A DNA stretch of 63,976 nucleotides, filler included, from Thelocarpon superellum (GCA_026025795.1; 2 parts of 2 records of this genome joined end to end with filler, not necessarily neighbours in it); one strand, 5' to 3'; shown: positions 13,001 to 47,093, counted from the whole stretch's first letter. The notes: a model not told the origin generated them from the sequence alone. Numbers and translations are program-made.

Positions 13001-16000
13001 GGCCTCCTCGACCTCTTCTTCGAGGAATGGGGCGACCTCGTCGGCTTCCTGACGGCGCATCCAATGGACCGACCGGAGTTGCTCTGGACGAAGAGGGGTC
13101 CGAAAGTGAGGGGGTTGGGTGGACGGAGGGTCGGATTTGTTGCTCCGCAAGGTGAGAGGTGGGAAGGTGACCTGGGGCGGCGCGACGTAGTTGGTCAACA
13201 AACGCCAGGCCACCGTCATGTCCGAAGCCTGCGGCGCGCCAGGAAGACGGGCCATCGCCCGATGGACCAGGGACCACACGTTGAGCCCGACGCGCAGCAT
13301 CCCGACGTCCTTCTCGTCGATGCGAACTTGGGTGAGAAAGGGCGACGGACGATTCTTCAGCGCGTGCTCATAGGGCGCAGCTTGTTGTGGGTCTTCATAC
13401 GGCCGCCATTTGTTCTTGGAATACTCCCACTTGACGCCCGGAGCCGGGGGCGCACACGCCGCGCATGCTCCAGCATCCTCGCCCAGCGTCAAGGCGTTCC
13501 ACGTCGCGAGTCCCTGGATACGGCGCACTCGTTCGGTCAGCCACGCAAAGGAGGTGAAGACCCCACTCTCATTCGGTTTGTCCACCTCGACCCAGTCACC
13601 GCGACCCCATCCGATATGTTCTTCGCATGGAAGCTGGACCCGGCACGAGAGGATCGTGTTGGCAATGTTGCAGGACGGTTCGACGAAAGCCGCTGGCAAC
13701 GGGTGGGGCGGGACCGCAAAAGACGCATCTTGGCCGCGACGGACGGGCACCAACGACGTCGATGGACTTGAGATCCAGCGTCCTTCTACGACGCAGGGGA
13801 CCTTTTCGGGCTCGAACCGGTGCGACGGCCGCCACGTTGCATCGACCGTGGCGACGACCTGACGGATTTCCCCATAGGTGAGACGGCGGATGTCGGTAGA
13901 GAAGACGAATGGGTCTCGGGCCGGATCGCCCAGCCTGGTCGGGTCGAGGAAGAGAAACATGGGCGCCGTCTCTGCGGCCGATATCTGGTGAGAGATGCGC
14001 TTCTTGTGCAGACTGCCAGAGGCTGTCGCGCAGTCTTGGAGCAGGTCATAATCGCCCTCGATTGCCATATCCAGGAGCTCCCGGGCACTGGGGTCGACCG
14101 CGACGTGGAGTGACGACCACACCTGCTTGTCGGCGAAGCGGGACTCGGTGAGTCCCAGCTTGGACTCCCACGAGCGGAGCAGCGTCCCCTGTCCGGTGAC
14201 CGTGATGGTGAAGCGGTTCGCGAGGGGAAGACAAAACTGCCAGGTGCCCGACAACAGGCTGACACGCGTGGGCCGCATCCGCGCAAACGGTCGCGCCAGC
14301 AGTCGCCGCACCGGGTCGTTCCCAGGTAGTCCAGCTTCGGGCTTGCCGAAGACGCGCCACTCGGCCTGACGGCCGTCCAAGATGAGCTCCATGCGTGCGG
14401 TGGGCGCATCGTAGGTGACGGTCCAAGTCTGTGCCCGCTTCAGCGAATGAAAGCGCAATTCCACTCCCAAGGCCGGTGCGATCGAAGACGCGAGCCGATC
14501 CCACTCGGCGTCATCTACCGAGATCTTCGACGTGGTCTGGAGCGTCTGGAGTCCTTCGAGGGTGAGCCCTTCGACAGCAATGCGCATGGGCAGCGCGTTC
14601 TTCAGCTGATCCTCAAAGTTGGCTGGAGGTAAGCGCGCCTGGAGCTCCGGCCGTGCGATGACCTCGTACCGATGCGAAGGGTTCCCACCACACTGCTCGC
14701 AAGTCGTATGGTGACACAAGACGCATCGCCGAAGCTTGTTGCTCGTCATGAGCGCTCGTCCTTCGCAGAGACAAAGACGTGCGCTCCGGACAGCGTCATG
14801 TAGGATGCGCGGGACCGGAATGGGCGCGACGTTGCCAAGGTCAAGGGGTGCCAGGACGAGCGCGTCATCGCCTCGCAGATGGTGCTGCACATCGACTGCG
14901 TCGACGGGCATCGGATCGCCGTCCGCTTGAGGGATGGCACGATGGCCAACGATCAGGGCCGCCAGGATAGCCGCGCCCACCACGGTCGATGTCATTGCGT
15001 TTCCCGCGAGGTCTTGCAGATTCTTTTGACTCTCGCGCGTCAGGAGCAGTTTCTCGATCGGGAGTCCCTGCATTGCAAGGGCTTCGAGACCGATCATCGG
15101 GCCGCCGCGGTTGGTGACAAAAGGGTATCCCGTCGGCGTGATGCAGGCCGTGATGCCGAAAGGCGTGGTGTCAGTGAATCGGTCGATGTTCTGCGATAGC
15201 TCCCACACCCGCGTCTTGTACTGCGAATCGAACCCACGCCGAACGTTGCGTAGGAAGGAGATCTCAAACGTGTCCCAGATGCGCTCGACCTGCTGCACGC
15301 CCCAGTCACCCCAGGCATAATCGGGCATGCGACACGACCCGTTATCCTCCCATCCGGTCAGGGGTCGCTTGGCTCCGAGGAAGAGGTCTGCCCGGTAGTC
15401 CTGATGACGGCCTTGGCACTTGGTCCAATCCACATCGCGCGGTCCGTCGTCATCACCGCGACGCATGCCCCGAGCCAACTCGGCGCGCCCGCGGTGCACG
15501 CGCGGATCGTCTTCGTGAAGTAAGAAGGCCTCGATGGAACTGCTGGCGGGTCGGCTCAAGGTCGACATGAGATGTTCCCAGCGTTCCACCACTGACTCAT
15601 GGGCGAGCTTCTTTCGGTCGACACAGATCATATAGCCACGCTGACGGGTGTGGGGGATGTAGTACTGCTTGGTGTCGAGCCGCACGTGCCGAGAATTGTA
15701 TCCGATTTCTCCCCACAGGATCTGGATGTCTTCCCATGGCGCGCTACACACGTTCTCCAACACGATCAGCGGCGGACGCCAGGCACGAGCGTACTGATAG
15801 ACGGCCTGGAACGTATCGCCAGACTCGCCTCCGGCACTGAGCGTTTGACGTTTTGTGTTCAGATTAGAAAAGTCAACGCAGGAGAAGCCGGCAACGAGGA
15901 GGTCAACATCCGCCGGGATCTCTGCTCTCGCTCCGTATGCCGTTGTCGCCGTGGTCGAATCCACCAACTCGCGAATGTCCCGAAAGATGATGGGCGGACT

Positions 16001-17679
16001 GAAGTTGCGTTCGATGTAGGCCTGCTTGTATGGCACAATCTCGGCACTGAACTGGTGCTCGAAGTCCAACGTGCGACCCTCGAGCTTGTTAAGACCTGTA
16101 TCCAGTCAGCAGCGAGCGTGAGGATGCAGAGGAATGACGCACTCTCGTTGACGAGCTGCAACGCCAGGATCGGACTCTCCGTCCCGGAACACATGGTCGC
16201 GACCTTGAGCTTGTTGCTTCGCAAATGCTCCACGGCCTTCATCAACCCCTGTTCTCGAGCCGCCCGCGTGAGATCCTCAAAGATCTCGCCGATGTCGTGC
16301 ATCGGAGGCAGCTCCTCTCGGATACCTGCCTTGTACGTCCACGTATCCGTGTTGCGCGAATCTTGCGCGCGCTTCGTCGGCCGCTTCTTCGCGGACGTCG
16401 AATTGGCGGCCGAGGCAGCGCCGAGAGCCCCCATGGACGAGATTGTCGCTTGCACCTTAACGCGCTTCCGCGGAGGAGGGGCGGCCTCCGCCTCTTCGCT
16501 GCGCTCTATGTCCTCCTCTGATTCCATGTGGTCGAGGGAGCGCTCTGACGGACTTGACGGGCTTAGGTTTCCCGGTTCCACGTCGGATGAGGTCTGGCTG
16601 GAAGCTTCCTCTGCTTCAGAGGCACGGAAATCCTCGGTATCTGAGCTCGACGAAGTGTACTCGTCGTCACTGCAAGCGCTTGGTGAGCAGGTGAGATGCA
16701 GACACACAGAGAGAGCCGGGGGGGAGGGGGAAAGAGTTGACGGATTTTCAGCGTGTACAAGGGAAACAGGATGGTCAAGAGTTCATGAGGATCAGACAGG
16801 GGACCTTCGAGTTGTTGGACAGCACAGGTCAGGACAGTAGGAAGTGAAGAACATGGGAACTCGGGATAGCAATTTCAAGGATGGTTAGGTATTCACCCAC
16901 CTCGAAGATATAGAGCTCGCGCCTGCGCGGACTTGGATGTCGCCATCCAGTGAATGAACGGCTCGCGCGGGCCTCTGTCTTAGGCTCCGCGCGCCTTGGC
17001 TTTGCGTCGAAACGCGCCGCACTCCAACAAAGAACGACTCGATTGGCTTTTGAGTCCCCGTCATAGCCTTCTGATTCACTAGGCGTGGACGTGCAACCAA
17101 GTTGGAGGTCTCGGGTGTCTTGGGCGTCTTGGGTGTCTTCTTGGCTTGCGGGACTGGACACAAGTCCTGTCAGCATGGGACGTGTTGATGGTTCAAGGGA
17201 ATTCGTGAGAAGCCACGTCATGTAGGACTCAATACAGTCGAAGTAGGACACAAGGGTAGGACAACCTAATCACGAATTTGTGCATGAACCATCCCCGCCA
17301 TTTTAAAGCAGCAATACCGAGGTCTTTGATGTTGGCTGGGCATCTCATGCGCGCACAGAACAGTGGGGCATATATGTCACTCACCCTCAACCTTGGCGAG
17401 CCACATGCGACCCTTGGGCCGATGCCTGTTTGGATTGACCACATCTGACTTGCATGGCTCCCGAGATTCCGCTTTTGAAGAGCGGCGAATGGGTGAGATG
17501 TGTAGTGCAGTCATTTTCCCCTTCGCCATGGAGTGTCTCATCGGTCGCGGCTGTTGCGCAGCTTTCTTTGACCGGCCACGAGTCTGTGAGACAACCTCAC
17601 TATCAGTGTCATTGTCGTTGGATAGTCGGCTTTCAGGGTATCGGATGGCGGCCTTGGTTGTCCTTCGGAGAGGTGCCAT
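10061..17679 (-). CDS. DNMT5: DNMT5-type C5 cytosine DNA methyltransferase fused to a SNF2 ATPase with RING finger
   Basis: MTase motifs: I LKVATMCSGTESP, IV DLLVAGFSCVDFS, VI IVLENV, VIII PHTRQRGY, X DLAGNAMTSTVV. SNF2 motifs: GGVLADQVGYGKT, VVVDEYTY, WVLSGTP, QAIGRARRYGQ. RING: CSAC...CGHTACQPC...CGVTGC. The intron at 16142-16096 joins the 15859-16707 ORF to the 2002-aa ORF. The 5' exons (16673 up to a putative ATG at 17679) are uncertain. Confidence 0.9.
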
Positions 17680-25400: not shown

Positions 25401-27122
25401 CGTCTACCACAGATGCTTGCAGCTCGAGCTCCATCCACCGTGGTCGGTCAAGGAAATCGGACAATGTCAACGCCAGGTCAACAACAGGACATCCGTGCAG
25501 CGCGACGGAGCTCCGCACCACGGCCCGAGCGGCGGATGAATGGTGCTAACAACTTGAATGGTGGTCTGGCAGGGGGTAAAGCCGGCCGTCCCAGTCACAG
25601 GATCCGACGCTCTGATTCGGCAACTTTCGGTGTGCAACAAACAGGGAAACGGTCGAAGCACCAGCGCATCCCACCCTTGTCGGTTCCTGCATTTTCGTCT
25701 GCCATTTCCCCACCTCGCGCTACGACACCCACGCCGGCAGCCAGGCGGTCGGCACAGCCGCAACGCGCTCCGTGGCAGGCGCCAAAACAATGCGGGTCGT
25801 TTCCGCCCGCCGTTGTCGACAGCGAAGGCACCTCCAGAAATTTCATCACGAAACGACGAACATTGACTGGAATGCAATCAGGCTTGCAGAAGCATGGCGC
25901 ATGGGAAAGTCCGTCCGACGCCGTGGAGACACTTTTACCCTACGTGCGCGAACGCGTGGGTCCAGGGAAGATCCCAAGCCTAGCCTGCAGTTTGTCCTCA
26001 CAGTCAGTATTATCGGATGCTGCAATGACTAGCGATATCCCGAATAGTCCCTGATCGCCGCCCCCCAAGGTTCTGATGGTATAGCGACAGGAACTTTGAG
26101 ATTTCGCTTTTCAAGAGGGCACGTCTTCCGGCGCGACCGAAATATGATCTCCGCAGGGACCTCTGCCGTGGTCGCGATTGGCCTACAAGAAGACTGGGAC
26201 AGAGACCGCGAGGGTAAGTTGCGGATGAGACGGCCGGGGCAGTAGGTCGCTTGGATGACAGTTACGTGAGGTGAGTGAGACAGGTAGACGGTCGAATGAC
26301 CTGGTGGATTGAAGTTCCCGTTCCCGTAAAGGTCTCGACCGATCATCGAGATGTGGGACTCGTTACGAGGACGCCGTGGATCCGATCGCTCTGTCCAATA
26401 CGTTGTTTCTCCGACCTTATGTCGCTTCAGCCAGGCTGCATATCGTCGGTGCAGGGCTCTCATCAGCTAACCGACCTCCCGGCGCCGTCCCGATCATCCC
26501 CTCCCCGACCCGTCATCTATGGAAAGACCTATGGCAATGTCCTTGACCACGCATTCCAGACCTTACTCATCGGGATGAGAAATTGAGATGGTAGGTCATC
26601 GGAGATGGCCTGCTTTAAGAAAGCCTTCTTACCCTTGGCGGATTAGCCAAAGGTTCTCGCCGACCGTGGGTGGCATGGCACGGCGTCCACGAAGTGAGCG
26701 TCTCGACAGGATCTCGAGATGGCTTATCGTCAATGACATTCGTCGAAATGTCACATCGCATCTAGCGAGTAGCATCACGTCATGGGAAGGTGGTAGGCGC
26801 AAGAGAAGCGGTCGGACGAAAAAGAGAAAACCAATCCTTGAGTGACCACTGTTGGTATCAAGGACCCTTGGTGGGGCATGATGGGATCCGCCCGCGGGGG
26901 TGCCGTCGTCAGGAGAAAAGGTGGGGGTGGGGCAACAGGAGAATGCAAAACGGAACCACAATTGTCCGATCTAAACGCGCCACCGGAAAGAGCAAAACAG
27001 CTCTGCTTCTGGAAGATCTTGACGCTCGAGAGCTGCGTCGTCATGAGCGGGTTGTGGACGTTGGCGCCACGGCCCAAGCTTCTGGCAGAGAAGGGCGCGG
27101 CTGCTACTAGCAAGGGTCCTTC

Positions 27123-27930
27123 TACGACGGACTATAACGCCGAGTGCGACACATCAGGAATTCGCGAATTTGCGTAGCAAATTCGTGATTCCCGATTCCT
27201 GGATTCCTGATTCCTGATTCCACGCAGCCAGTGACTAGAATCTGAGGTGGAGCTGCTGCATGTGCTGCTTCACCTCAGAGCTTCTCTCACTGCTGTGCCT
27301 ATGGCAATCTTGCTCTTTGCTCTTAGAGACTTAGATAGAGGCAGTGAGAGAGAAAGAGTGGTGTAGCATTGTAGAATATATATAGGTCTAGGAGCTCTAT
27401 TCTGCCCTGCCCTGGGCCTACCTATTACTCTTTAAACATGCCTCCTCTGTTGGTCAATCTTGAGCCCTATAAGGAGGCTATCATTCAGCTCTATCACTCA
27501 GGTTCTATACATGATGAGATTGTTCAACAGCTACAACAAGCCTATTCCATCTCCATGACCACTCAGACCCTTCAGAGACAGTTCCAGGCATGGTGTGAGG
27601 CTGGAAGCTCCACACCTCGCCACAAGGATGGGAATGATCATGTGATAACCATGTGACCTGGCATGGTGTATATAAATCGAGTCCTGCTGTGAGCTCGCAG
27701 AGCCCCAGCATTTAACTCAAGTAACACGAGGAGGCTAGTCATAGGTCTATGAGCCCTAGGAGCCACAGAGTCAACTCCATTGATGATGTCTACTGTTTCT
27801 GCCTAGCTGTAGGCCTCGTCGTCACAGTTGTTGTACTGCGCTGCGTGGAATTCGGAATCGGGAATCGCGAATTCGCTACGCGAATTCGCGAATTCCTGAT
27901 GTGTCGCACTCGGCGTTATAGTCCGTCGTA
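27123..27930. mobile_element. 808-bp non-autonomous/deleted TIR DNA transposon with TAC...GTA termini and 7-bp TSD GTCCTTC
   Basis: Left end tacgacggactataacgccgagtgcgacacatcaggaattcgcgaatt... is the reverse complement of the right end (~90-100 bp imperfect TIR). GTCCTTC occurs at 27116-27122 and 27931-27937. The interior is AT-richer and CpG-depleted. Confidence 0.92.
27438..27600 (+). pseudogene. Remnant N-terminal HTH (Clr5-like) domain of a transposase
   Basis: MPPLLVNLEPYKEAIIQLYHSG...EIVQQLQQAYSISMTTQTLQRQFQAW resembles, from recall, the N-terminus of fungal HTH + integrase-core transposase-like proteins. It is preceded by a TATA-like tract (~27375) and has no catalytic domain. Confidence 0.6.
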
Positions 27931-28806
27931 GTCCTTCGGCCGCCTGTCCAGTCGCAGTAAGGTGCGGAGATATTTCCTCGGTTGGCGCCGTGGCGGATCG
28001 TAAGGGACCGCCTTCCCAGCATAACGCAGCTCGCTTGCGGGCTTTGTACCAGGCCAGCTTTCATTGTTCCTTACATCGCCACGGTCCTCGGGAGCACCTC
28101 CTCGCAACGTCGAGGCCAAGACGTACTTGGCAGCTCAGTCTATCACCCTCGAACTACGGCCCACCGCGCCCCGAATTCGGCTCTCCCGAACCCTCGCCAC
28201 TCACCGACGTCTCGCGCAGCGCGATCCAAGCACGCAAATACCGCCCCACCAATCCCTGCTGCCCCGTTACCGCGGCCGGGTCCATTTGCTCTCTCGCTTG
28301 CGTGGGCGCACGGAGTGTGTCTGAATGTAGATGGCCAGGTGCAGACCCCGACGTGATCCGCAGGCGGATCGTCTCGGTGTGATCGCGGTGCTTGTGGTGT
28401 AACCCTGTCCATGCCGGTCCAGTAGCTCCCTTCTTCCCCATCTGCTCGTGGCGCCACCCTACGACTCCGGGTCCGTTGGTTCGGGGACGACGATTAAGGC
28501 CGACCACCGCATGCCCGCCACCGCCAGACGGCCAAGATGGGTCCCTCGCTGGGCCCCAGCCGGTATAAGCCGCTGGCCCTGGCCAGGCTTTCGAGGGGTA
28601 ACGTCGGGCGTGCATTATCACCCCCTACGATCCTCCACCGACTTGAGCGCACCCAATTGGATTCCGGACCACAACTTCGAGATGGCGGATCGAGTCGGAC
28701 CCGTCGCGGAGTAAGCTCCTCCCTCCAAGAAACGGCAACACTCAGTTGATATCTGAGTAGGTTCGACGCAACGGAAGTCGAGCCTCGTCAGGTGGGCCAA
28801 GAGGAC

Positions 28807-30678
28807 ATGGCTGGGAGGACCACGACTGGTCCCGTCGTCACCGCACCAGCCGCTGTCGAGAAGGATGTCATCCCAAGCCACCCGACGCTGAGCCTCACTA
28901 CGGACGACGGAGAGCCAACGGAGGAGGAGAGAGCGAGGCTGCGCAAGGTGGCTGATACACTGCCCTGGTCAGCCTTCCTCGTGGCCATCATCGAGCTCTG
29001 CGAGCGTTTCGCCTATTACGGCCTGAGTGGTCCCTTCCAAAATTACATCCAAAACCCCGCCGATGATCCCAAGCTACCCGGAGCGATTGGTATGTGGATG
29101 CTTGCGTGGTGCTCGTGGCGGGGGACCGAACAGGCTAATCATCACGCCAGGCTTGGGTCAGACCGGGGCGACGGGCTTGACCAACTTCTTCCAGTTCTGG
29201 TGTTACGTCACGCCGATCCTGGGCGCCATCGTCGCCGATCAATACCTCGGTCGATACAGGACGATCCTGTTCTTCTCCATAGTGTACGTCGTTGGTTTGC
29301 TCATCCTGTTTCTGTCATCGCTGCCGATTGCCATCGAGAAGCAGGCGTCCTTGGGTGGGTTGATTGCGGCCATGATTGTCATTGGCCTGGGCACGGGCGG
29401 CATCAAATCTAACGTCAGTCCCTTGATCGCCGAGCAGTACCGCGGCACCAAGCAAACCATCCGCACGCTCAAGACGGGCGAACGCGTCATCGTCGATCCC
29501 GGCATCACGGTGGAGCGCATCTACATGATTTTCTACCTCTGTATCAACGTCGGCTCCCTGTCCTCCATTGCCACAACGGAGTTGGAGCTGCATGTGGGCT
29601 ACTGGGCCACGTATCTGCTTCCTATGTTGATGTTCTTCGTCGGCTTCTTTGTCTTAGTCGCCGGCCGGAAGCGATACATCACGCGCCCGCCGAGAGGCTC
29701 GGTCATCATTCACGCCTGCCGGGTGCTCTGGATTGCCACGCGCAGCGGCTTTCGGCTCGAAGCCGCCACATCCTCCTATCAGGAAGAGTATGGTCGCCGG
29801 TATACGACACCGTGGAATGATCTCTTCATCGAAGAGATCCGCCGCGCGCTGGTCGCGTGCAAGGTCTTTCTCTTCTTCCCCATTTACTGGGTCACGTATT
29901 ATCAGATGCTCAACAACTTCATCTCCCAAGGTACAGTCCTCTTTCCCCCTCTCCGACTACGGGCCGACGCTGACGTGCGCAGCGGGGACAATGGAGCTTC
30001 ACGGCATCCCCAACGACATCATGCAGAACATCGACTCGCTCACCATCATCATCTTTATCCCGCTCATGGATCGGCTGTTCTACCCCTTTCTCCGGAGCAT
30101 CGGCATCCGCTTCAAGCCTATCACGCGCATTACCTGGGGCTTCATCCTGGGCTCGCTCGCCATGGCCTACGCTGCCATCGTGCAACACCTCATCTACATC
30201 TCGCCGCCGTGCTACGATCAGGCGACCAGCTGCGACACGGCCAATCACGTGCACGTGGCGGTCCAGACGCCGGCCTACCTCCTGATCGGTCTATCGGAGA
30301 TCTTGGCCAGCATCACCGGGCTGGAATATGCCTTTACCAAAGCGCCGGCCAACATGAAGTCTTTTGTAAGCCCCTCACTCGCCCCTGCTTGCATCGGCGC
30401 TGATCAACTTCCAGGTCATGTCTCTCTTCCTTCTGACCAACGCCTTTGGTGCCGCCCTCGGCATCGCCCTGTCGCCGACCGCTGTTGATCCCAAGCTCGT
30501 GTGGATGTACACGGGTCTGGCGATCGCGGCGGCTATTGCGGCCGCGCTCTTCTGGTTGATTTACCGCCGCTACAATGCCACGGAAGAGGAGATGAATGAA
30601 CTCGAGGCTCGTGGGGAGCAGGCGCTTCCCGCCACGGAAGTGGGCACGACGCTCGGCAGCGAGCACGCCGATGAGTAA
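28807..30678 (+). CDS. PTR2: POT/PTR family di/tripeptide transporter, 4 exons
   Basis: ELCERFAYYG (ExxERF), GAIVADQYLGRYRTI, GTGGIKSNVSPLIAEQY, FYLCINVGSL, EILASITGLEYAFTKAP. Confidence 0.93.
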
Positions 30679-31970: not shown

Positions 31971-32070
31971 NNNNNNNNNNNNNNNNNNNNNNNNNNNNNN
32001 NNNNNNNNNNNNNNTTAATTAATTAANNNNNNNNNNNNNNNNNNNNNNNNNNNNNNNNNNNNNNNNNNNN
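31971..32070. other. Artificial contig-joining spacer (44 N + TTAATTAATTAA + 44 N)
   Basis: Exactly 100 nt and symmetric, with a palindromic core that places stop codons in all six frames. Confidence 0.97.
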
Positions 32071-33159: not shown

Positions 33160-36100
33160 TCAAGGGGTCCCCTCGTCATAATGAGGCCCGTCCTCGTCGT
33201 CGTTCCCAGCTCCGGCGCCACCTCCGCCCGCGCCGCCCCACGGACCAGGCGTGTCGGGGTTACCGTACGCGGCTGGCGTGGGCGGTGCGCCGCGTGGTCC
33301 GAGGCCTCCACCTAGGCCACCGCTGCCGCCGAAAGAGGCGCCAGGCGTCGGAGCAGACATGGCGGCGGGCGTGGGAGCCGAGAGAGCCGCGGGCGTCGGG
33401 GCAGATATGGCGGCGGGAGTGGGCGCCGATTCCGCCCCGCCCCATGGCGTGCTGACCGTTGCGCTGGGGCCGCCTCGGTTCCAGGCCCCGCTGGCGTGAG
33501 GGGTGGGTGCCGAGGCGGCCGGCGTGGGCGCGGCATATCCGCCTGGCGTGGGGGCGTTGAGGGCCCCTGGTGTGGGAGCCGTGAGCTCCGCGCCGGGCGT
33601 AGGTATGTCGTAGGCGCGTGGATTGCTTGGGGCCCAGACGTCCGAGGATGACGGCCCGTATGCGGGCGTCTTGGACCCTGCGTTCCACGTGTCCGTTGCA
33701 GCGGCGATGCCGCCGCCGTACGCGGGCGTCTTGGATCCCGCGTTGAAGTCGCTGCCGTGGCTGGCGTCGACACCGTACGGCGTCTGGGCACCGGCGTTCC
33801 ATCTGTTGACGTGTTAGCTTCATCAATTCGACGCGTTCGGGGATGAGATCTCTGTACGCTGGGGTACGCTAGCGAGGAGATTAGCAACACTTCGAAGCAG
33901 GGATGGGCAGCCACGAACATTTCCGGCACCATAGGTCGTCCGGCTTCCGTCGTAGGGATTGACCGTGCGGCCACCATCTCCCCCATAGGCTGGTGTGCGA
34001 CCGCCCATCGCGTCCTGTTTCCATGCAGGAGTCCGTGCACCACTTCCCGCCCACGCTGGCGCTGTGACCATGTCAGTTGGGGCCTCCAGGACGTGATCAA
34101 GATTCTTACTTCGTGAGCCTGCACCCCACGCTGGCGTTCTCGACTCGGTACCCGCTGCCATCGGGGTGCGACTGCCTTCCCAGTCCGGTCGGCGTGGTGT
34201 GGCTCCACCATACGAGGGATTGGCTGGAGCGCCACGACCGCGGCCTGCGCCAAAGCTGGCAAAATCCATTGACCGGCCGGTGAGCGGACTGGAACACGTT
34301 AGTCACGTAGAGGTGGGGGCAGCGGCTACACGCACTCTTTGAATGCCAACGTGTCTTTCGGTACCGAGATCGTCTTGCTCTTGGTGTGGAGCTCCACGCG
34401 AGCCTCGTTGTCCGTCGTGTCGGTGACGATACCCAGCAAGCCTTTGTACGGTCCCTTGCGAATCGTCACCGTCTTGCCCAACGCACGGTCTCGCATGACG
34501 CTCTTCGGTGCGGCGGGAGGCGCCATGCCGCCGTTAGCACCGCCGTTTCGCTGCAAGGCGGGGTTCATCTTGGACAGGTCCGGGCCGGTCGCGGCACCGC
34601 CCGTGACGCGACCTCCTTTGGCCGCCACGGTTGCCACGTTGTTCGTGCGGGCGACAAAGATGCCCGCGTTCTCCGTCTGCTCGCGGTTGTGTAGGAAGAG
34701 ATAGGAGCGATGGATGTGCATGATGACGCCTTGCTTGTTCTCGCCGCCCGCCTCGCGTACCGTATCGTCGATCCGGATCTCTGACCCATTTCGATCAGTG
34801 GCCACGGCGTGCCGTCGACGTTCCAGTTTCTGCGAGACTTGAGAAGGCATGATCGTGCGGAGCGAGCCATTCTGATCCAAGACTCGTAAGGATTCTCGAT
34901 CCGCCTTGATGACCATGCCGACCGTGGATTGACTGCACGAGATTAGCGTTACCCAAGAGCCGACGTCGCCATACATACTCGAGGAGCACCAGATCGTGTA
35001 GATCAAATTGGCCGAACCCTCCCGCCCGACCCGAGTCAGTGGCTTCCCGAAGATCCTTGCTGAAGACGGTGATCTCTTGCATGGTCTGGTCGCTGACCAA
35101 AGTCACCTTGTCGGCGCTGATGCGCACAATCATTCCCACATCGTCGCGGTACTTGCTGCCCCCAATCACCTTCACGTGGTCTCCCTCGCGGAAACGCTTG
35201 CGTAAGCCCTTGATGGGAACCTCGATGGTTTGACCCAAGAGCTCGCCCTCGCTGACGGTCATGGTGACGATATCGCCCTGGACGCGGACGGCCTTGCCAC
35301 ACACGCCCTGCTGTTCGCCGTCGTAGACCTCGACCATGTCGCCGGGCAGGTAAGCCGAGCTAGCGGTGCTGGCCTTAAGCCGGGCGGCGAGGGCACCCAG
35401 GTCGAGATTCTCGGTGCCATCTTCCGCGCCCGATGCAAAGCGGGTCACTTCTTCGAGCGTCGGATTGACCTCCTCGGTGACAAGGAATTGGATCTTGTAA
35501 TCCTTGACCAGGTATCCATCTTTGTAGATGTCGCCCAGATACTGCCACTTCTTTTCGCCCAAGGACTGCAGATATTTCAAATGTTTCTTCTTCGCCTCCG
35601 ACTCGCTGAACAGGCGCGGTGCTGGCCGCGGTGCCGCATTGGCTCCGAAGCCTCCGATGCGCTTTCGTTTGGCCGCCGCCCCGTTGGCGCCGTTCTCCAT
35701 GGGCGCGTTGGCATCCTCGTTGAGCCCATAGTCCAGTCGCGGCACCAGTCGGAGCTCCACCTCGAGTCCGTTGGACACGACGGCCTCCACCTGAGCCAGA
35801 TCGCCCTGGTACTTGCCCCGCTTGAGACGCACGTAGGAACCTGGCTCGATGTCCTTGCTCTTCTTCGTCCGCAGCAGATCCGGCATCTCCTTGATGGGCA
35901 CCAGGATCAGGTTGGTCCGAGGATAGATGTTGGTCAGGCCGTCCAGCGCGGTCAAGATGTCTTCCTTCCGTCGCGCCTCCACGTAGACGTAGCCGGTCAT
36001 GGTTCCGCCACGCTCGAAGGCACAGGTGATGGACAGCGGCGTCCGCGTGGCGGCCCGCTCCTCGACCCGTTTGGTGATGGCGAAGATGATCTCGCGCTCT

Positions 36101-36963
36101 TTGCCGGGCTTGGCTCTCACGCCCCAGATGTTGGGATCCTCGACACTGGGTAGGAGGAGACGTCGAGGGATGACGACATTGTCTGTGGTGGTGACCCGAT
36201 TCCGTCCATATCGTTTGCGGTACTCCTCGGCTTGTCGCTCTGCATCTAGGCCCGCCTCCAGCTCGCGGCGACGGTCGAGCTCTCGGTGCTGCCGGTCGTC
36301 GATGATCTCGCCACCGGCAGGCAGTTGCGCTTCGTCATCGGGATGGGTGTTGTCGATGAAGCCCTCGCCCTCCCGCAGCTCGTCTTCCTCATCCTCAATC
36401 TCCTCGTCTTGATCGTCGACCTCGGCCTCGATATCGAAGAGCCCGCCGCCAGGTTGGCGTCGTTTGGAGCGCTTGCGTCGATGTCCCTGGCACGACGTCA
36501 GCGTCCGGTCAGCTAGAGACGTGGAGTGGAGACGTACCGAGATTTCCTCTTCGTCGTCTTCCTCTTCGTCCTCGTCCAAGTCGTCTTCGTCACCCACAGC
36601 GTCGCCATCAGCGTCTGCATCTCCGTCTGCGTCGGCATCGGCATCGACACCCTCGTCTTCCTCGTCGTTCGCCCTGGCGCTAGCGTCACGGTCTGCACGC
36701 ATTTGGCTGATGGCTCGTCCTTCGTTCTGCGGCGAGCCCGGATCCGGGGTGGACGGGTCTGAATCGTCACCATCGTCATCACCGTGGTCTCCATGGATCT
36801 GTCGCTGAAGTTCCTCATCTTGTCGTGATCGCTCCTTGGACGGCGATTCATCATCCTCTCCACCCACTTCGTCGTCAGATTCGTCCGCCGGGGCCGGATG
36901 AAAGTTGACGTCGCCGTCGGACTCGGACCCGAAATCCTGGTCGAGAAGGTTGGCCGTCGCCAT
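33160..36963 (-). CDS. SPT5: Transcription elongation factor Spt5 (multi-exon)
   Basis: Acidic N-terminus, NGN domain ([22 protein letters not shown]...GYVYVEA), KOW motifs ([26 protein letters not shown]) and C-terminal RTPAW/RTPAY/APTP repeats. Confidence 0.96.
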
Positions 36964-38194
36964 GATGAATCGGAGTGAGGTCCGCAGGCTCTACTCGGTC
37001 ATCAAGTGACAAGTGAGCAAGGACTCGACGGAGGCAACAATGATCAAGTCCGCTCAACACGACAACATTGATGAACAAAGAGTGAACAGGAACATCGAGC
37101 CATGCAGTTGTCCTCTCTCGTCCGCCGTACAGCTGGCCCTTGCGCCTAAGAATTTGGGATCGGAACTGAACTACTCCTCACGTGACTTTGACACCTTTTC
37201 ACCACGTCGACTGCCAGTACCTACTTGACGGAGGCCCAAGCTCAAGAACTCTTCCATAGTAGACGAGAAACTTCTCTTGGGTTTTTCAAAACACTCATCA
37301 GCTTTCCCTAACATTTACGCACTATGTTAAATCAGGTGATTGGAAGAGGTGGACCGCATTCCTTTACCGTGACGGCATTGACCCGGCGTGCGGCAGGCCT
37401 GGCGGCTTGCACATGTTGAAGGGTTCGTGGGAGGCAGAAGCGCGCGTCGGAAAATCTAGACTACGGTGAAACCGAGTCTCAATCGGTATTGGTTTCAAGA
37501 CGGCCGTCGGGTGAATTGACAAGGTGAAAGCTTGCGCCTTGACGCGCTGCCCGAGCACACTGGCTCGCTACCCCCCCGGTCGGCACCGCCACTTGAAACG
37601 GCGATGGCGTGGAGGGCGCTCGGCAGTCTCAGATGGTTCCACTTCCAACGCGGGTCCCCTCGAAGTAAGATCGGCACGCCACGGAATGACGGGGCAATCC
37701 CGTCGTACAGATGTCGTGCAGAGCAAGTGCACCTCGGGAGTCCGCCCGGGTCCAAATCTCCTACCCGCAGATACCTGACCACGGTGCAAGGATGCGGACT
37801 GATGATTCACGCCTATCACGAATCAATATAGTCCTATAGCCTGCTGGCTATTCGGCCGGCGTAGACTGAGAGCTGGATGAGGCCGAGTGGCGACTTCCAT
37901 ACCGCCTCCCCATACCGCCTCTCATTGGTTCCCTCAGGATCAACGCAATTGCCCTTGCTCGCCCTTGGTTGGCCCTTGGTCGTGGGCTAGGCACGTTTCA
38001 TCCTTCGTGGCCCTTTGTTACGGCCCTCTGTACCCCACCAAGATCCATTCCCAAAGACCACTCACCCTGCATTTCTATCCTCCCACGCATTGTCCTTCCT
38101 TTCTATGGCGGGGCATGGCAGAGGGCGCATGTATAAGACGTGCTGATCGCCCTCGATCATCCACCACTCCTGGACGCATCACCTCTCCGCCCGC

Positions 38195-38911
38195 GTGTCT
38201 TACGACCAGTCTCTTCCACCGCCGCCTCCATCTCCACCTCCACCGTCGCTCTCTGTGCACCTCCCATACATTCGCTTTCCCCCATCTCTCACGATGCCTC
38301 ACGCACGAAGCAGCCAGCTGTTCGGTCTCATGCACATCCTCTTGAGCCTCAGCATCCTCGGCGCCTTCTACGCCTCACCCCTGTCCGCCATGCATCTCCC
38401 CCACGCCGCGCATGCCGGGCTCGCTGGACGAGGCTCGGCTCTGCGCTCGCCGGGCGTGGCACCAGACCTGAGCGTCATCTTTCCCCGGCAGGCACAGGCA
38501 CAGGATGCTGGCCGGGACGCCGTTGCCCCGCCGGCTTCGCTCGTTCCATCCGCCTCACTCCTCGCCTCCCCCACCCTCAACCCGACGCCCTCGGCCGTCT
38601 CGACCGTGCAGGCCCTCCCTCCGATTACCGTCTCCCCGATCCCGCCACCACCGGACACCATGAAGCCGCCGGCGCCGCAGCTCGATGACTCCCAATCCTC
38701 CCCAAGCTCTGGAGGAGGAGGAGGAGGCCTCAGCAAGGGCGCTATCGCCGCGGTGGTGGTGCTGATCATTGCGGTGCTGGGCATCGTCGCCTTCTTTGTG
38801 GTGGTCAAATACCGGCGCGTGCAAGCGGCGCGCCGGACCCGGGCCCGCACGCAGGCGGAGGCCCAGGCCAAGGAGAAGGCTCTTCTCGCCGTCTTTTCCT
38901 CGAAGGACTAG
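38195..38911 (+). CDS. Putative single-pass type I membrane protein with P/S/T-rich ectodomain
   Basis: Hydrophobic signal-like segment (LMHILLSLSILGAFYA), then GLSKGAIAAVVVLIIAVLGIVAFFVVV followed by basic KYRR. The real start is probably a downstream ATG. Confidence 0.6.
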   Translation: MSYDQSLPPPPPSPPPPSLSVHLPYIRFPPSLTMPHARSSQLFGLMHILLSLSILGAFYASPLSAMHLPHAAHAGLAGRGSALRSPGVAPDLSVIFPRQAQAQDAGRDAVAPPASLVPSASLLASPTLNPTPSAVSTVQALPPITVSPIPPPPDTMKPPAPQLDDSQSSPSSGGGGGGLSKGAIAAVVVLIIAVLGIVAFFVVVKYRRVQAARRTRARTQAEAQAKEKALLAVFSSKD

Positions 38912-39367
38912 ATGGGGTGGAACCGGACCACCGCGATGGCCTTTGCGATGACCACCCACACTACTCTCAATACCATCTCGACCACCACCACCACCACCAC
39001 CACCACGAACATGACCGCTCCGCAGCGCGTCACGTCTCGACGAATCCTTCCATTCATCAGCGGGCTGCGGAGAGGGGTTGGGCGGAACAGGTGTGGTTGG
39101 AGCGGCGTTCCGTGAATCCAATTTCTTTTCTATTCTGGGCAGGGGCTACAGCCATTGCCCGGGCCTGGGCAGGCTAGGAGAGGGCAATTGAGAATTTGGG
39201 GATTGAAAGGGGCGAACACTGCCGCGGTGCTGAGATAGGAATGACGCCGGACAGTGAAGGAGGGAAAGAATCGACCAGGGGGAAATGTCCAATTCCCAAT
39301 AAAAATAAAATCTAAATTCACTTCCATTTTGGCTGTGATTGCACCCCAGAACATGTACGAAGTAACA

Positions 39368-40954
39368 TCATCTAGCGACCGGGACACGCACCGGCGCATC
39401 CCCCTGCATGGCATCCACGTCCAACGCGCCCTCCTCACCCACATCCGCATCCGCATCCGCCTCCTCACCCGCCACCCTCCGCCACAGACCAGCCCACAGG
39501 CCCTGTTTCTGCGCCATGGCGAGGACCAGAAGGAGGGGGAGATGCCACACGGAGGCCCAGAAGAGACGACGCGCGGAGCCGGCCTGGCCCTCGCGGCGCC
39601 AGAAGCGCCACGCTTCGCGCACCAGCCACGCGTTGGCCAGGCTGCTGGTCACGAGGAAGCCTGCGTCGGTGACGCCGACGTACCACAGGCCCATGCACAG
39701 CGGGACACAGAGGATGGAATAGCGCAGTGCGACGCGCCCGTTGCGCCGCGGGTTCACCCACGCCATCATCTGCAGCCCAGCCTTGCGGTAGTCGTCCCGG
39801 ATCGTCCAGCTCAGTGCGTTGAAGTGCGGGAACTGCCATGCGAATAGCAGCCCTGCGAGCAGCCAGCCGCCGCCGCTGCCCGAGCCGAAGAGCAGTTCTT
39901 GCCAGTCGCCTCGCGACGAGGCGCTTTGCCCGGCCGCGGCGGCCCAGCCCATGAGCGGCGGGATGGCGCCCACGGCCGCCCCGACCCACGTGTTGAGCGT
40001 CGAGAGGCGCTTCATGGGCGTGTAGACGCCGGCGTAGAGGACGATGTTGAGGCCGCCGAGGAAGGCCACTGTGGGGTTGACGCCGTAGTAGAGAGCGCCG
40101 AGGCCCGCGACGCCCGTCGCGATGGCGAACGCGAGGGCGCCACCGGGGCTGATCAGCTTGCGCACCAGTGGCCGGTTCCGCGTGCGGCTCATCTTGGCGT
40201 CGGAGCTGCGCTCGAAGAGCATGTTGAGCGCGTTGGCGCTGGCCGTTGATAGCGCCGTGCCCGTGGTGAGGAAGAGCAGGGTCAGGGTCGACAGCGAGGG
40301 CGAGGCCGTCGTCGTCGGCAGCAGGAGGGCGGGGACGGGGAAGAGAGAGTAGGCGCTCGTGGCCGTGAGCACGATGAGCACCGATAGACGCGGCTTGGAG
40401 AGCGAGAGATAGGTGGTGAGTAGACGGCGGAGGGAGCGGTCCGGTAGCGCGGCGGATATCGTCGTCAGGCGTGACGAGGCGTCCAACGGCATCGCGGTGT
40501 CGCCGGTCGTCGGGGAGGCGGCGGCATCTTTGACCAAGGATTCCTGCCGTAGCCGCTGCTTTCGTCGGTGCGGAAGCTCATCCACAGGTGTCTGGCGCAA
40601 CCGAGCGGACAGCTCCTCGTTGGATCCTGAAAGGGGCGATGAGGCCTGCGCGTCGACGGTCGTCACGTTGGCTCTCCGTCCGTCCGCTCCTGCTGCCCAT
40701 GGACCGGGAAAGCCACGTCTCGCGGCGGAGATGGTTGGCTGGAGGGATTCATTGGCCAGAAAGTATTCCTGCCGGAACAATTCTCGTCGCGTGGGACCGC
40801 CGGTCACCACGTTTGTTCCTCGCCGCGAGGAGCCCGAGAACTGCCGGGGGAGGACCCGGCCTTGGGGACGCGAGAGGCGGAGGAGACATCTCACGCAAAT
40901 ACTCTCTCCGGACTGCCGAGAGAGGAGACTCTGAGGCTTGGCTCGCGTGATCAT
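39368..40954 (-). CDS. COX10: Protoheme IX farnesyltransferase (heme O synthase), mitochondrial
   Basis: LSKPRL, DAKMSRTRNRPLV, LYAGVYTPMKR, NTWVGAAVGAIPPLMGW, WQFPHFNALS; intronless. Confidence 0.96.
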   Translation of the reverse strand: MITRAKPQSLLSRQSGESICVRCLLRLSRPQGRVLPRQFSGSSRRGTNVVTGGPTRRELFRQEYFLANESLQPTISAARRGFPGPWAAGADGRRANVTTVDAQASSPLSGSNEELSARLRQTPVDELPHRRKQRLRQESLVKDAAASPTTGDTAMPLDASSRLTTISAALPDRSLRRLLTTYLSLSKPRLSVLIVLTATSAYSLFPVPALLLPTTTASPSLSTLTLLFLTTGTALSTASANALNMLFERSSDAKMSRTRNRPLVRKLISPGGALAFAIATGVAGLGALYYGVNPTVAFLGGLNIVLYAGVYTPMKRLSTLNTWVGAAVGAIPPLMGWAAAAGQSASSRGDWQELLFGSGSGGGWLLAGLLFAWQFPHFNALSWTIRDDYRKAGLQMMAWVNPRRNGRVALRYSILCVPLCMGLWYVGVTDAGFLVTSSLANAWLVREAWRFWRREGQAGSARRLFWASVWHLPLLLVLAMAQKQGLWAGLWRRVAGEEADADADVGEEGALDVDAMQGDAPVRVPVAR

Positions 40955-41292
40955 GATCCCATCGCGGTCGCATTCGCCGTCGACGGTCGATGAGCGGACT
41001 GTCCGTCGTGCAAAGAACTACTAAGTCGTTGCACGACTCGGATGTTACATCAGTGGTGTCTTCACCCGCCGTAGTTGAGGTACACGGTACGGGACGCCAA
41101 CGGGCCCACATGCGCTGTTGGCGTCTCCTGTATGAGCCGGGACCACCCTACCACTACACGGACGCCGGAGGATGGATGATGATCATATCGCAGCAGCGCG
41201 ACTAGATTACAACAGCTCGGATAGATACGCTCGAGCGTCGCGTGCTCATATGCGCCGAAAGGTCTATGTATGGTACACCGGGCCGTGCCCTA

Positions 41293-44200
41293 CTACTCCT
41301 CGTCCAGGTGATCTTCGGACAAGTAGTCAAAGTCGCGAGGCACCTCGGCCTCTTCGCCCTCCTCGTCCTCATCCACAGCGGTCAAGACGCCAGCGGCCTC
41401 GGCGGCTCCCCCACCGCTGATGTTCTGGGCGGTGGCGCTGTCTGCGCCGGCTGCGGCGGCATCGCGGGTCCGGTAGGCCGCTTGGATATGGTCATTGAGC
41501 GTGTCTGGGGCCGCGGCGCGCTGGACCGCGCGCTTGGCCTTGAGCTCCAGCATGGGCTTCGGCAAGTCGGGCTGCGTATCCAAGAGCAGGATCACGCCAC
41601 CTGTCGGCTGTGCACAGCGTTAGCCACGGAGTGGACACGGCGCGATGCGGCGACCGCTCGACTCACCTTCTTGATCGGCTCAAACCGCGGCTCGGGGAAG
41701 CTGATAAACTTGAGCTGCGCGGGGAGGACGCGGGTCATGTTCCCCAGATCATATCCCAGGCGCTCCTTCTCCTTCTCCTTCTCCTTCTCGCGTTCCTTCT
41801 CCGCCTTCTTCTTGGCAGCCTCGCCGCTCGCCACGCCCGGCGATTCTGTCGCGTCGCCCTCGGGCGCGGGTCGGGCATCGCCGCTCTTGGCGTCGGCGGC
41901 CTTGGCGGCGCCCTCGTCGTCGAGGTCCATCTGGTCCGTCGTGGCGCGGGGCGTGCCGGGCCGCGGGCCCGTCAGTGAGCTCTCAGGTCGCTGTTGCTTC
42001 TCCTTCTTCTGCGCCCGGCGCTTCGCCTGGGCGGTGGTCGAGAGCACGGCCGTGGCCACCTTCTGCGGGGCCTGGTCGGTCTTGGTCTCCTGCTCGGGCG
42101 GATAGTCGAAGAGGCTCGGCCGGGTGGCGCAGTGGAAGGTGAACTGCGGCAGGCCGAGCTCGTGATCGAGCCCGACGATGGACGTCGGCGTGAAGCTGAG
42201 GGAGAGGAAGTGCGTGAGCGGGAACCAGTACCAGTATTGGGTGAAGACGGCCATGCCGACGATGCCGGCCATGTTGAGATTGCCCGTCTGCGTCTGCAGG
42301 CCGATGGTGCAGTTGCGGCCGCCGGCGTCGATGATGCCCAGCGCGAGGGCGCAGCCAAACTTGGCCATGGCATCCTCGTGCCGGTCGCTGATGATGCGTT
42401 GCAGCGTCTTGCGGATGGCGCCGACCTTGGGGTTCATCGCCTCGTTCTGCTGCACCAGGATCATGGCCATGGCGATGAGGGCGCCCTGACGCACAAAGTC
42501 GGTGGGGTCCTTGATCATGGGCTCGAGCAGGTCGATGGCCTCGTCCAGGCCGGTGCCGGCGCACGAGATGCCCAGCGCCATGGCGGCGCCGTAGCGCACG
42601 TGCGGGTTGTAGGACTCGGAGAGCAGCTCGACCATGCGCGGCACGCTGCTCGGCTTGCGGAAGAGGATGAAGCCGAGGCTCATGACGGCGACGCGGCGGA
42701 CGTCGTCGCTGACGTCGCTGACGGCGACGTGCAAGAGCTTGCGCACGGCCTTGTTGCTGCCGGTGCCGCAGTAGGCCATGGCCAGCGTCATGATGCCGCC
42801 GTAGCGCAGCGTCGGGTCCGGGTCGTTGAGCAGGCCGTCCATAAGCTCGTCGGCGGCCTCCTGCCGGCCGAACATGATCAGCGCCATGCCCAGAGCCAGG
42901 CCGCGCACGATCTTCTCGTGCTGGGTCTCGTGGGCGTAGAGGATCATGCTCTCGAGCGCCTTGGTGTTGCCCGTCCCCAGCATGACCAGCCCCATGGCCA
43001 GGCCGACGGCCTCCCCGTTCAGGGCCGAGTCGGCGTACAGCACCGACTTGAGCTCGTCGTAGATTTCCTCCGAGCCCGTGGCCATGCCGGCCAGCCCGAG
43101 GCCGAGCGCGCCGCCGTGCTGCACCACCTCCTCGCCGTTGTTGCTGAGCTTGCGGAACTGGTCGCGCAGGTAGTCCAGCACGTCGGTGCCGTGGTTGGCG
43201 TAGATCAGCCCGAGCGCATACAGCGAGCCACCCTGGCTGTAGACGGAGCCGGCCACGATGGCGTCACGTGGCAGGTAGGGCTCGAGCAACTTCATGCCCT
43301 GACTGAGATTTCCCCGATGGATCACGCCCAGCGCCGCCGTCGCCGTGAACTTGGACCAGTTCACGGCCTTGGCCAGCCACTCGAGGTTGTTGCGGAAGAA
43401 GACGTCGCTGGTGGTGCCGGCGTTCATGAAGGCGTTGCAGAAGGTGACGGCGGTGTGGAAGATGGAATTGCGCGCCTCCAGGCTGTCCTTGACCTTGTTC
43501 AGGATGTTGATGTCCGTGTGGTTGTTCCGGAACAGGAACTCGAGATTCAGCTCGATGCTCTTGGTGCCCTTGAGGATGCCGTCGATGGCGGCGTACACCG
43601 TTCGCTGCGCCTCGGGGATGGGCGTGGACGACTCGTCCGCGGCTGGTAGCAGCGGCGCCGTCTCCGGTGCGGGGGCACCCTCCTCGGGCGGCGGCACCGC
43701 ACTCGATGGGAGGCCTTCCACCACCTTGCCGAGGAACTCTTGGGTGCTGTTGTCGAAGATGTCAAAGGCGATCTGGTAGGCGATGGCGGTGGAAGCCGTG
43801 TCGCCCTTCTCCACCAGCTGGCGGAGAATCTCGGCGGCCAGGGCATGCTCGCTGAGGTAGACGACGCATTTGGCGATGGCGAAGTAGTCGGGGACAGGGA
43901 GCTCGTTGAGCAGGTCGAGGATGAGCTTGAGAATCTCGTGGCGCAGACCTCGCTCCTGCACCACGCCCATGCAGATGTCCAAGACGTACTCCATGAGCTC
44001 TTCGCCCCCGCCGCCGACGGGTTGGCCGGTCATGGCATCTACCTGCGCCTTGTCCTCTTGCGAGGCGCGGAGGATGACCTGACGCAGCACGGAGAGCTCG
44101 CGGGCCTCGACGGCGATGCCAACGACCTGGCGGTAGCGGCCTTGGCGGTAGCATCGCTCAAAGAGCTGCTCGATGACGGCCTGCAGATGCTTGAGGATGC

Positions 44201-44955
44201 CCCGGGGTAAGGTCAGCGGCGAGGGGTGGGCACCGACGACGCCGGCATTGCCGCCGCCGGGCAGTTCGGGATCGAAGGTGGACGAGGCGGCTTGGCGGGA
44301 GAGGAGCGACTTGGAGGGCAGGGTGGACTGTGAGAAGGGGGTGGTGGGTGAGGTCAGACTGGCTGAGGTGCTGGCGCCGCCGTCGGGGTTCTGCGGAAAG
44401 GCGGTGGTGAGCTGCGGTGGCGGCTGGTTGGCGGTGCTGGCGGGCGCTGCTGGATGGTGCATGGCGGACAGGGCGATGTAGGTGTCGACGCATTTTGCTG
44501 GGATCTCCAGTCAGCCCTGGCCTACGGCCTATGCACAGGCCGAGGGGCCACTGCAACGGCGTGCTCACAGATGATAGTCTCCTCAAACTCTCCCTCTTGG
44601 TCCAGATCGAACAGCTTCCCGGCGCCGAGGGCAAACTCCATGCTCTCGCTGTATTCCTGCAGATGATAATAGACCTTGGCGATGACCAGGGCGGCCAGTT
44701 CTCGTTCCGGAAAGGTCTCATCTTCGTACAACGCCTCTCTGGATGGTGGCAACCATGTCAGCCCGGTCCGTGCTTGCCCTGGCACGCCGCCACCTCCGCC
44801 GACAGGCTCACTCACATGCGCCAGACGGATGAGGCGATCTCGGTCCACAGCAGGTCGACCTCGTCGTTGAGCCGCTTGAGGGCGAAGACCTGGAGATCAG
44901 GGTCGGACTCGGACAAGAAGCCGACCAAGCCGGCGGCGGACGTCAGGCCGACCAT
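41293..44955 (-). CDS. RPN2: 26S proteasome regulatory subunit Rpn2 (multi-exon)
   Basis: MVGLTSAAGLVGFL, ALVIAKVYYHLQEY, NWSKFTATAALGVIH, PC repeats, QYWYWFPLTHF and an acidic C-terminus. Confidence 0.96.
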
Positions 44956-46195: not shown

Positions 46196-47062
46196 ATGGA
46201 TCTCCGTGCCATCATCAACGCCGATGCCACGACGCCCACCCACTCCAGCACCCCACAACCGGCCAGCCGATCGGTGCCCATGTACCATGACTATCATGGC
46301 AGTGCTCATGTATCGCCGCAAGACGCTCATGCGGGTCGACAGGCTACGCCGGCTCAGTCACCGCGGGCGCCGACAGCACAACATGACCATCGTTCCCCGG
46401 CGTCGTCAAAATTCCACTCAGCCCTCGCCGGGTCGCCGTATGGTCCGTCTTCATCCCCATCCACTACGTGGGGTCCGCCGTATCCCTTCCCACCACAGCC
46501 AGCGGTTGAAACCCGCCGGCCGAGCGTTCCAGAGCCGTCACCGCGCGAGTACGCGGCCCAGCGACGGCCCCGAAGCCATGGGGAGATGGCGGGCTACGAC
46601 CGCTTCGGCTCCGACCCATCGCAGTCCCCCCAACGCGAAGGCAGCCACGTGGCGGACGCGTCACGATATCCCCTGGAGACGCTGCCGGCGAACAGTGCAC
46701 CGCCCGTGCCTGAGCGCGGGCGCGGCGAGTGGGCCGGACCCAGTCCCGTCTCGTACCAGACCAGCCCGAGCAGCGCCAAAGTCGCCGTCGCCCCTGAGCC
46801 GGCCAGTCCATCGCCGGCGCGGCCCAGCAGGAAGCGAGGGCGCGATGAACCGCCCATCTTTGCACAGAGTGTGAAGCGCGTCAAGAGCGACGGGGCCCTC
46901 CCCATCCATAAGGGGGTGCCAGCCCAGAGCAAGAATGACACGCGCGACATCCAGATGGCCTCGGGACGAAGTAGCCGACCTGGCCCGGCTCACGGGGAGA
47001 CGAATGGCGCTGGGGTGGTGCCCCAGGCGGAGGTCATGGCGGCCCCTTCCAGCGCCGTGACG

Positions 47063-47093
<31 letters not shown>

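Follow-up and report, generated by a model that had tools for sequence, protein, structure and literature searches.

A recently inserted, non-autonomous TIR transposon of a multi-copy fungal family is depleted of CpG in its interior and CpG-dense at its ends

The window, i.e. the whole stretch of DNA analysed here, is 63,976 bp long and includes two runs of 44 N each (31971–32014 and 32027–32070, 88 N in total). The genes recognised in it were a Prp2/DHX16-like DEAH helicase (6911–9937, plus strand), an orthologue of the DNA methyltransferase DNMT5 (10061–16782, minus strand), Spt5 in two frames (34326–36990, minus strand), Rpn2 (41592–44510, minus strand), a Cet1-type RNA triphosphatase (46124–47908, plus strand) and a class II aminoacyl-tRNA synthetase (52025–54039, minus strand). 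Apart from DNMT5, these neighbours are ordinary housekeeping genes, and their long open frames suggest few introns. Comparisons of the Prp2/DHX16-like and Rpn2 ORFs with PDB entries favoured neither an ascomycete nor a basidiomycete origin. An 808-bp transposable element occupies positions 27123–27930; the DNMT5 gene lies outside it.

The DNMT5 gene was identified by Pfam searches and by comparison with the Cryptococcus Dnmt5 structure (PDB 7r76). Its main open frame (10061–16105, minus strand, 2014 aa) carried the domains PF00145 (DNA_methylase), PF00176 (SNF2-rel_dom) and PF00271 (Helicase_C) above their cut-offs, and a RING-finger match (PF14634) of 20.5 bits, below the cut-off of 27.9. DNMT5 is an SNF2-fused C5 methyltransferase whose methylase domain precedes a RING finger and a split SNF2 ATPase, and the open frame agrees with this layout. 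Against 7r76_A it scored 1336 bits, over query residues 8–1553 and 1698–1967. A second, upstream frame (15859–16782, minus strand) corresponded to 7r76 residues 185–352, and the gene is presumably split over the two frames by an intron near 16105–16150. The SCVD stretch with the catalytic Cys, the ENV stretch and the MCSGTESP stretch, the last in the upstream frame, all aligned with 7r76; we take them to be the catalytic motifs. The upstream minus-strand frames had no Pfam match, to a chromodomain or otherwise, and the match to 7r76 began at residue 185. Among the window ORFs scanned, only DNMT5 had a DNA_methylase domain. The sequence-only reading had proposed this gene, ~10 kb from the element, as the candidate enzyme for CpG loss in the repeat. 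It is a true DNMT5 orthologue, judging by Pfam and 7r76, and apparently intact, but its proximity to the element carries no evidential weight and is a coincidence.

The element ends in terminal inverted repeats (TIRs) of 77–78 nt. A repeat search returned inverted arms at 27122–27199 and 27854–27931 (78 nt, 96% complementary), and together with the arm alignment this placed the left TIR at 27123–27199 (plus strand) and the right TIR at 27854–27930 (minus strand). Target-site duplications of the sequence GTCCTTC flank them at 27116–27122 and 27931–27937, as seen by direct reading and in the empty-site contigs described below. Short subterminal repeats of the GATTCCT type follow the left arm (27193–27228, plus strand); they were found as a repeat pair, and in a gapped alignment the homology between the arms extended into them, with gaps. 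According to the arm alignment, the left TIR contains three octamers of the GAATTCGC type, at 27158–27165, 27166–27173 and 27179–27186. No transposase gene was found in the element by ORF and Pfam scans, the longest ORF being one of 72 aa with a Clr5 domain only. A hairpin lies just inside the left arm, at 27241–27279, with 16-nt arms (27241–27256 and 27264–27279) that match at 88%; the Rfam matches there were below threshold.

Insertion polymorphism was determined with Logan contigs of four public runs from three studies, placed on positions 26600–28500 at a likeness of at least 80%. One run was labelled 'organism A' (X1), two were moss metagenomes (X2 and X3) and one was a soil metagenome (X4). 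All four had an empty site, in which a contig joined 27115 to 27931 and skipped 815 bases, i.e. the 808 bases of the element plus 7. At the junction, seven letters fitted either side, which leaves a single GTCCTTC. In X1, the depth of the empty-site contig (126.8) was similar to that of the adjoining unique contig (138.2), and the flanks had a single mismatch to the window over 1,116 aligned bases. Since the site was empty in four of four runs and its flanks were nearly identical to the window, the insertion is young, strain-specific and polymorphic. The family has thus been mobile recently, and the insertion at 27123–27930 is a recent one; a precise excision in all four runs would be a less parsimonious explanation. 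The sequence-only reading had called the element a transposon relic. This description does not hold for a member of a multi-copy family that is missing from all four runs between near-identical flanks, and that has therefore moved recently.

A duplication of 5 bp (TCCTT), with each arm one base longer, fitted the empty site as well as one of 7 bp. In X1, the loose ends of other family copies started directly after 27930, which favours an element end at this position and the 7-bp duplication. Canonical duplication lengths are 8 bp for hAT, 9–11 bp for Mutator, 3 bp for PIF and TA for Tc1/mariner, and the 7 bp of this element fit none of them. Its long arms likewise depart from the canonical values. 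A Tc1/mariner reading, based on TA...TA at the ends, was ruled out, as the empty site consists of one GTCCTTC, with no TA. In its 77–78-nt TIRs, subterminal repeats, target-site duplication, absence of a transposase, insertion polymorphism and multi-copy state, the element resembles MITE-like or Mutator-like deletion derivatives. It is a non-autonomous class II TIR (cut-and-paste) DNA transposon of a multi-copy family.

The multi-copy state of the family was seen in the contigs of X1. There, 460 contigs matched the 1.9-kb region, 141 of them at 99% or more, 112 at 95–99%, 143 at 90–95% and 64 at less than 90%. Their summed depth was ~3,800–6,500 on the arms and 340–1,400 on the ORF region, compared with 127 on the flanks. 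Over the element as a whole, the summed depth was 3 to ~350 times that of the flanks, a ratio which is not a strict copy number. The element is one member of a multi-copy family. BLAST against the window returned only the element itself and its own arms. Two scans of metagenome contigs for an autonomous partner, one with a degenerate end motif and one with an exact 20-mer from the abundant 139-bp unit described next, each found 0 loci.

This unit, at 27688–27826, is bounded by TGTGA...TCACA and was recognised by contig depth and by diverging contigs. Its summed depth in X1 was about 37,000–45,000 (37,448–44,829; coverage 27688–27815), against 127 for the flanks, and in X2 and X3 it was ~30-fold over the flanks. 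Past 27826, 13 contigs in X1, 7 in X2 and 8 in X3 diverged into unlike sequence. The segment acts as a separate, highly abundant unit and may represent a solo-LTR-like or else a MITE-like repeat. For the solo-LTR reading, suggested by its TG...CA ends, a check by eye revealed no duplication beside the unit. Rfam searches of 27000–28050 gave five matches, all far under the gathering scores, and a tRNA scan of the whole window gave 0 genes; there is therefore no sign of a tRNA or other RNA origin for the unit.

The 72-aa ORF of the element (27438–27656, plus strand) had a match to the helix-turn-helix-like domain Clr5 (PF14420; 28.3 bits, with a cut-off of 22.3; E 1.9e-6), with residues 8–52 covering profile positions 5–50 of 54. 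The nearest Atlas clusters, which we rate as a lead only, were all Clr5 (scores 0.81–0.85) and mostly from Ascomycota. Both results agree with the HTH remnant proposed from the sequence alone. Seven of the eight listed between-copy variants within the ORF were nonsynonymous, so the ORF is seemingly not under coding constraint.

The interior of the element is strongly depleted of CpG. Between 27225 and 27617 (393 bp) there was not a single CpG, compared with 22.2 expected from the C+G content of the stretch itself (Poisson P = 2e-10) and 37 expected at the window-wide frequency. The longest CpG-free gap of the 63,976-bp window (395 bp) is located here, followed by one of 166 bp that includes the N runs and one of 96 bp. 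The observed/expected (o/e) ratio of CpG was 0.11 for 27200–27689, compared with 1.05 for the whole window, 1.05 for the left flank (26000–27122) and 1.01 for the right flank (27931–29000), and no 300-bp window outside the element was below 0.51. The two arms were CpG-dense, with an o/e of 2.14 (10 CpG) in the left and 2.39 (13 CpG) in the right TIR. TpG and CpA were enriched in the interior (27200–27853), with o/e ratios of 1.40 and 1.24, respectively, against 1.08 and 1.09 in the window. A CpG-free interior (by manual count), CpG-rich flanks and abundant CpA/TpG had all been noted by the sequence-only reading and were confirmed here as far as they can be counted. The loss of CpG is confined to the repeat, and the unique DNA keeps its CpG, as tested inside this one window. 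The TpA/ApT ratio of the interior (0.85–0.96) was about twice that of the window (0.47), which is beyond what CpG decay alone explains.

The decay has probably also touched the ends. In an ungapped comparison, the two arms had exactly three mismatches in their first 77 positions, at 27171 (T in the left and C in the right arm), 27179 (A and G) and 27186 (T and C). The corresponding dinucleotides were TG, CA and TG in the left arm and CG each time in the right arm, so that the three CpG transitions reported earlier for the first ~75 bp are real. Positions that belong to a CpG in either arm make up 26 of the 77, and the probability that all three mismatches fall there by location alone is ~(26/77)^3 = 0.04. 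The three transitions hit the second and third octamers of the left arm; the right arm has three intact GAATTCGC copies (3/3). Since the right-arm octamers are intact and the left ones are damaged at exactly the three mismatches, CG is probably the ancestral state at these sites. Among the X1 copies, four contigs had C at 27186, and the T of the window accounted for a depth of 162.6 out of 378.5. The T is thus common to other copies, and at least this change was inherited from the donor and did not arise after insertion.

Differences between family copies were examined for the best-supported 40 of 103 variant places, 38 of which lie in the element; the underlying contigs are collapsed, and some are metagenomic. 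Transitions made up 71 of 84 variant places in X1 and 33 of the 38 listed in-element differences. By window context, 17 of these 33 transitions were of the CpG type (Y before G or R after C), a type to which 22.9% of the element positions belong (binomial P = 3e-4), and the number rose to 22 of 33 once the state of a neighbouring variant was allowed for. The remaining 11 included differences between TpA and CpA/TpG, at 27469, 27508, 27630 and 27713.

Five adjacent pairs of variants had TG in some copies and CA in others (27215/6, 27342/3, 27359/60, 27408/9 and 27709/10). Only 0.19 such pairs were expected, and none of 100,000 random placements reached five. Most simply, these pairs would represent ancestral CG dinucleotides that decayed independently, on different strands, in different copies. 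The window has CA at 27709–27710. Across other copies, G made up 60% of the depth at 27710 and T made up 35% at 27709, which is what a mixture of CG, TG and CA forms should give. The 139-bp unit, too, was polymorphic for CG, TG and CA among copies. This polymorphism at the same dinucleotides within one family bears out the CpG-specific erosion claimed from the sequence alone.

A contig of X2/X3 overlapped the window copy by 354 nt, with 17 differences, 15 of them among those listed. At least five ancestral CpGs could be inferred for the overlap, none of which was kept in the window copy and two of which were kept in the X2/X3 copy; 7 of the 15 listed differences fell on the ~340 other positions. 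As a rough estimate, subject to ascertainment, CpG sites may have changed some 10 to 100 times faster than other sites. The X2/X3 copy had only ~2–3 CpG where the window copy has none. The surviving copies were thus already CpG-poor, so that most of the CpG loss is older than their divergence. An ancestral copy already free of CpG, which the sequence-only reading had named as a finding that would speak against it, did not emerge in the strict sense, but all surviving copies are CpG-poor.

The explanation that we favour, and consider fairly probable, is that of a recent non-autonomous TIR insertion whose family lost CpG by deamination of 5-methylcytosine (5mC) at CG-methylated repeats, with the ends spared. 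The family would have been under a long-lasting pressure from CpG to TpG/CpA, independent of strand and of the 5' neighbour, which falls on repeats but spares the adjoining unique DNA. In the unconstrained interior, i.e. the decayed Clr5/HTH-like ORF and the 139-bp unit, nearly all CpGs would have been lost. The repeated GAATTCGC motifs of the CpG-dense ends are probable transposase binding sites. Copies with decayed end motifs would stop transposing, and the propagating lineage would retain the CpG in its ends. As the insertion is young, its ends must still work, and the three differences between the arms may represent the first hits on them. The likeliest cause of the pressure would be that repeats are methylated symmetrically at CG and that their 5mC then deaminates spontaneously, with the DNMT5 of this genome as the likely maintenance enzyme.

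Such decay has been described in fungi before. Horns et al. 2012 (PMC3318451) ascribe a surplus of CpG transitions in fungal TE-like repeats to 5mC deamination, and they explain interspersed hits on both strands by methylated CpGs that deaminate spontaneously. Excerpts from two further sources describe the Dnmt5 of Cryptococcus as a CG-specific maintenance methylase acting on transposon-rich repeats (bioRxiv 10.1101/149385; PMC13297926). The element shares with such decaying, CG-methylated TEs of fungi with DNMT5 or DNMT1-type enzymes (PMC3318451; bioRxiv 10.1101/149385) the CpG transitions regardless of strand or 5' neighbour, their restriction to repeats and the presence of a DNMT5 gene. It differs from them in being a short, still mobile, non-autonomous DNA transposon with CpG-dense ends, a CpG-free body and putative methylation, and not a centromeric retroelement relic. 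Several points count against deamination of 5mC kept up by DNMT5. The 11 listed transitions outside the CpG type, the high TpA/ApT ratio of the interior and the CpG-poor state of the extant copies have been given above. In addition, Cryptococcus Dnmt5 is maintenance-only, while the insertion is new, and in the ascomycete Verticillium most methylation is made by Dim2 and not by Dnmt5, according to the sections used of PMC8091789 and PMC13297926.

Repeat-induced point mutation (RIP) and RIP-like processes were considered as well. RIP of the Neurospora type is diagnosed by a TpA/ApT ratio above 0.89 and a (CpA+TpG)/(ApC+GpT) ratio below 1.03. The interior of the element had a TpA/ApT of 0.85, a (CpA+TpG)/(ApC+GpT) of 1.64 (window 1.17) and a composite index of −0.79. 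By context, 10 of the 33 listed transitions were of the CpA type, against a baseline of 26.4%, and five of these 10 were partners in TG/CA pairs. The process seen here resembles Neurospora-type RIP in its C-to-T changes and its restriction to repeated DNA. Unlike RIP, however, it targets CpG and not CpA, CpA/TpG are enriched instead of depleted, and the composite index is negative. With no CpA-type signature, the earlier view that this is not canonical CpA-type RIP was supported.

CpG-biased RIP has been reported for some Eurotiomycetes. A RIP-like hypermutation at TpCpG is known from basidiomycetes, namely from Pucciniomycotina (Microbotryum, Rhodotorula, rusts), according to the parts of PMC3318451 referred to here, and it likewise has a CpG-containing target in repeats. 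In the element, the 5' neighbour of the 24 CpG-type sites gave seven TCG, seven GCG, seven CCG and three ACG, with 44 TCG, 50 GCG, 46 CCG and 45 ACG as the background of 185. A process of the Pucciniomycotina type is not supported by these counts, since the sites show no preference for a 5' T (7/24).

More generally, an active, homology-triggered, RIP-like hypermutation with a CpG target could have acted in bursts, instead of a slow deamination of 5mC. It would account for C-to-T and G-to-A changes at CpG that are found in the repeat family only and leave the flanks untouched. It would also fit the losses in the X2/X3 overlap, where the two copies lost five and three of at least five inferred ancestral CpGs, at a divergence of ~2% elsewhere, and it has a known counterpart in the basidiomycete process just cited (PMC3318451). 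The absence of a TpCpG preference (7 TCG of 24) and the classical indices, which point in the wrong direction (1.64 and −0.79), argue against it. Furthermore, hits on one strand are mixed with hits on the other along the copy, TG alternating with CA, which gives no hint of single-strand bursts, and the 139-bp unit is equally CpG-polymorphic despite being short, RIP having a length threshold. We regard such an active process as unlikely, but as the most serious competitor of 5mC deamination.

Slightly less likely still is an interior that was CpG-poor from the start and underwent little decay in this genome, whether through capture or horizontal transfer from a CpG-poor donor or through selection against CpG. 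The GC content of the interior (48%, against 59.8% for the window) would agree with such an origin, and every copy seen was CpG-poor in its interior. The Clr5 ORF, moreover, lacked a close relative in a search of 1.84 billion representatives (best identity 39%). The five TG/CA pairs and the polymorphisms between CG and TG/CA point instead to ancestral CpGs that were lost independently, and the 393-bp stretch has an excess of TpG and CpA of roughly 10–14, to be set against the deficit of 22 CpG. Quite improbable, finally, is a methylation-independent hypermutability of CpG throughout the genome, visible only in the unconstrained interior of the element: the window consists largely of genes, and selection may act on most of it, but CpG o/e stays at 1.05 and 1.01 in the ORF-poor flanks and at 0.51 or more in every 300-bp stretch beyond the element, and the inferred ratio of CpG to non-CpG rates is far above that of unmethylated genomes.

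Under 5mC deamination, the sequence would be indirect evidence that this GC-rich fungus marks its repeats at CG sites. It does not amount to the distinct repeat-defence mode that had been proposed, as both an excess of CpG transitions and a CG methylation of repeats by Dnmt5 are in print, in the extracts considered of PMC3318451 and bioRxiv 10.1101/149385. What is gained is a new example of the established CpG decay of methylated transposons, along with a useful test locus. A strain-specific insertion, with CpG-dense ends directly beside CpG-rich unique DNA, allows a test of DNMT5-type maintenance on newly transposed DNA.

A more speculative idea concerns how a maintenance-only enzyme could act on a new insertion. 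In a mobile lineage without internal CpG, only the ends can carry methylated CG (mCG). An element that moves by cut and paste takes its methylated DNA along to the new site, so that a maintenance-only DNMT5 could follow it, and a de novo enzyme would not be needed. We give this idea only a small chance of being correct. If it is, the loss of CpG from the body would let the element escape most silencing, and mCG is predicted to occur on the ends but not in the flanks and to depend on DNMT5. The insertion at 27123–27930 would be a natural test case.

Relatives of the Clr5 ORF were distant. A similarity search revealed no homologue of near-equal length, and the 1.84 billion representatives yielded seven weak matches (31–39% identity). 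Two glutamines of the ORF, Q43 and Q48, both encoded by CAG, faced Arg in three of four and in four of four distant relatives (31–42% identity), respectively. The invariant Arg that was retained, R47, is encoded by AGA, a codon free of CpG. The presence of Gln at both positions fits CGG-to-CAG changes, as far as such distant relatives allow; this confirms in part the earlier suggestion that Gln codons in the HTH remnant stand in the place of Arg. One of the distant relatives (P0001, 722 aa) had, besides a restriction-endonuclease domain (Mrr_cat), some six HTH/Clr5-like repeats in tandem, among them a transposase HTH of the Sleeping Beauty type, and two others (P0002 and P0003) were likewise HTH-repeat arrays.
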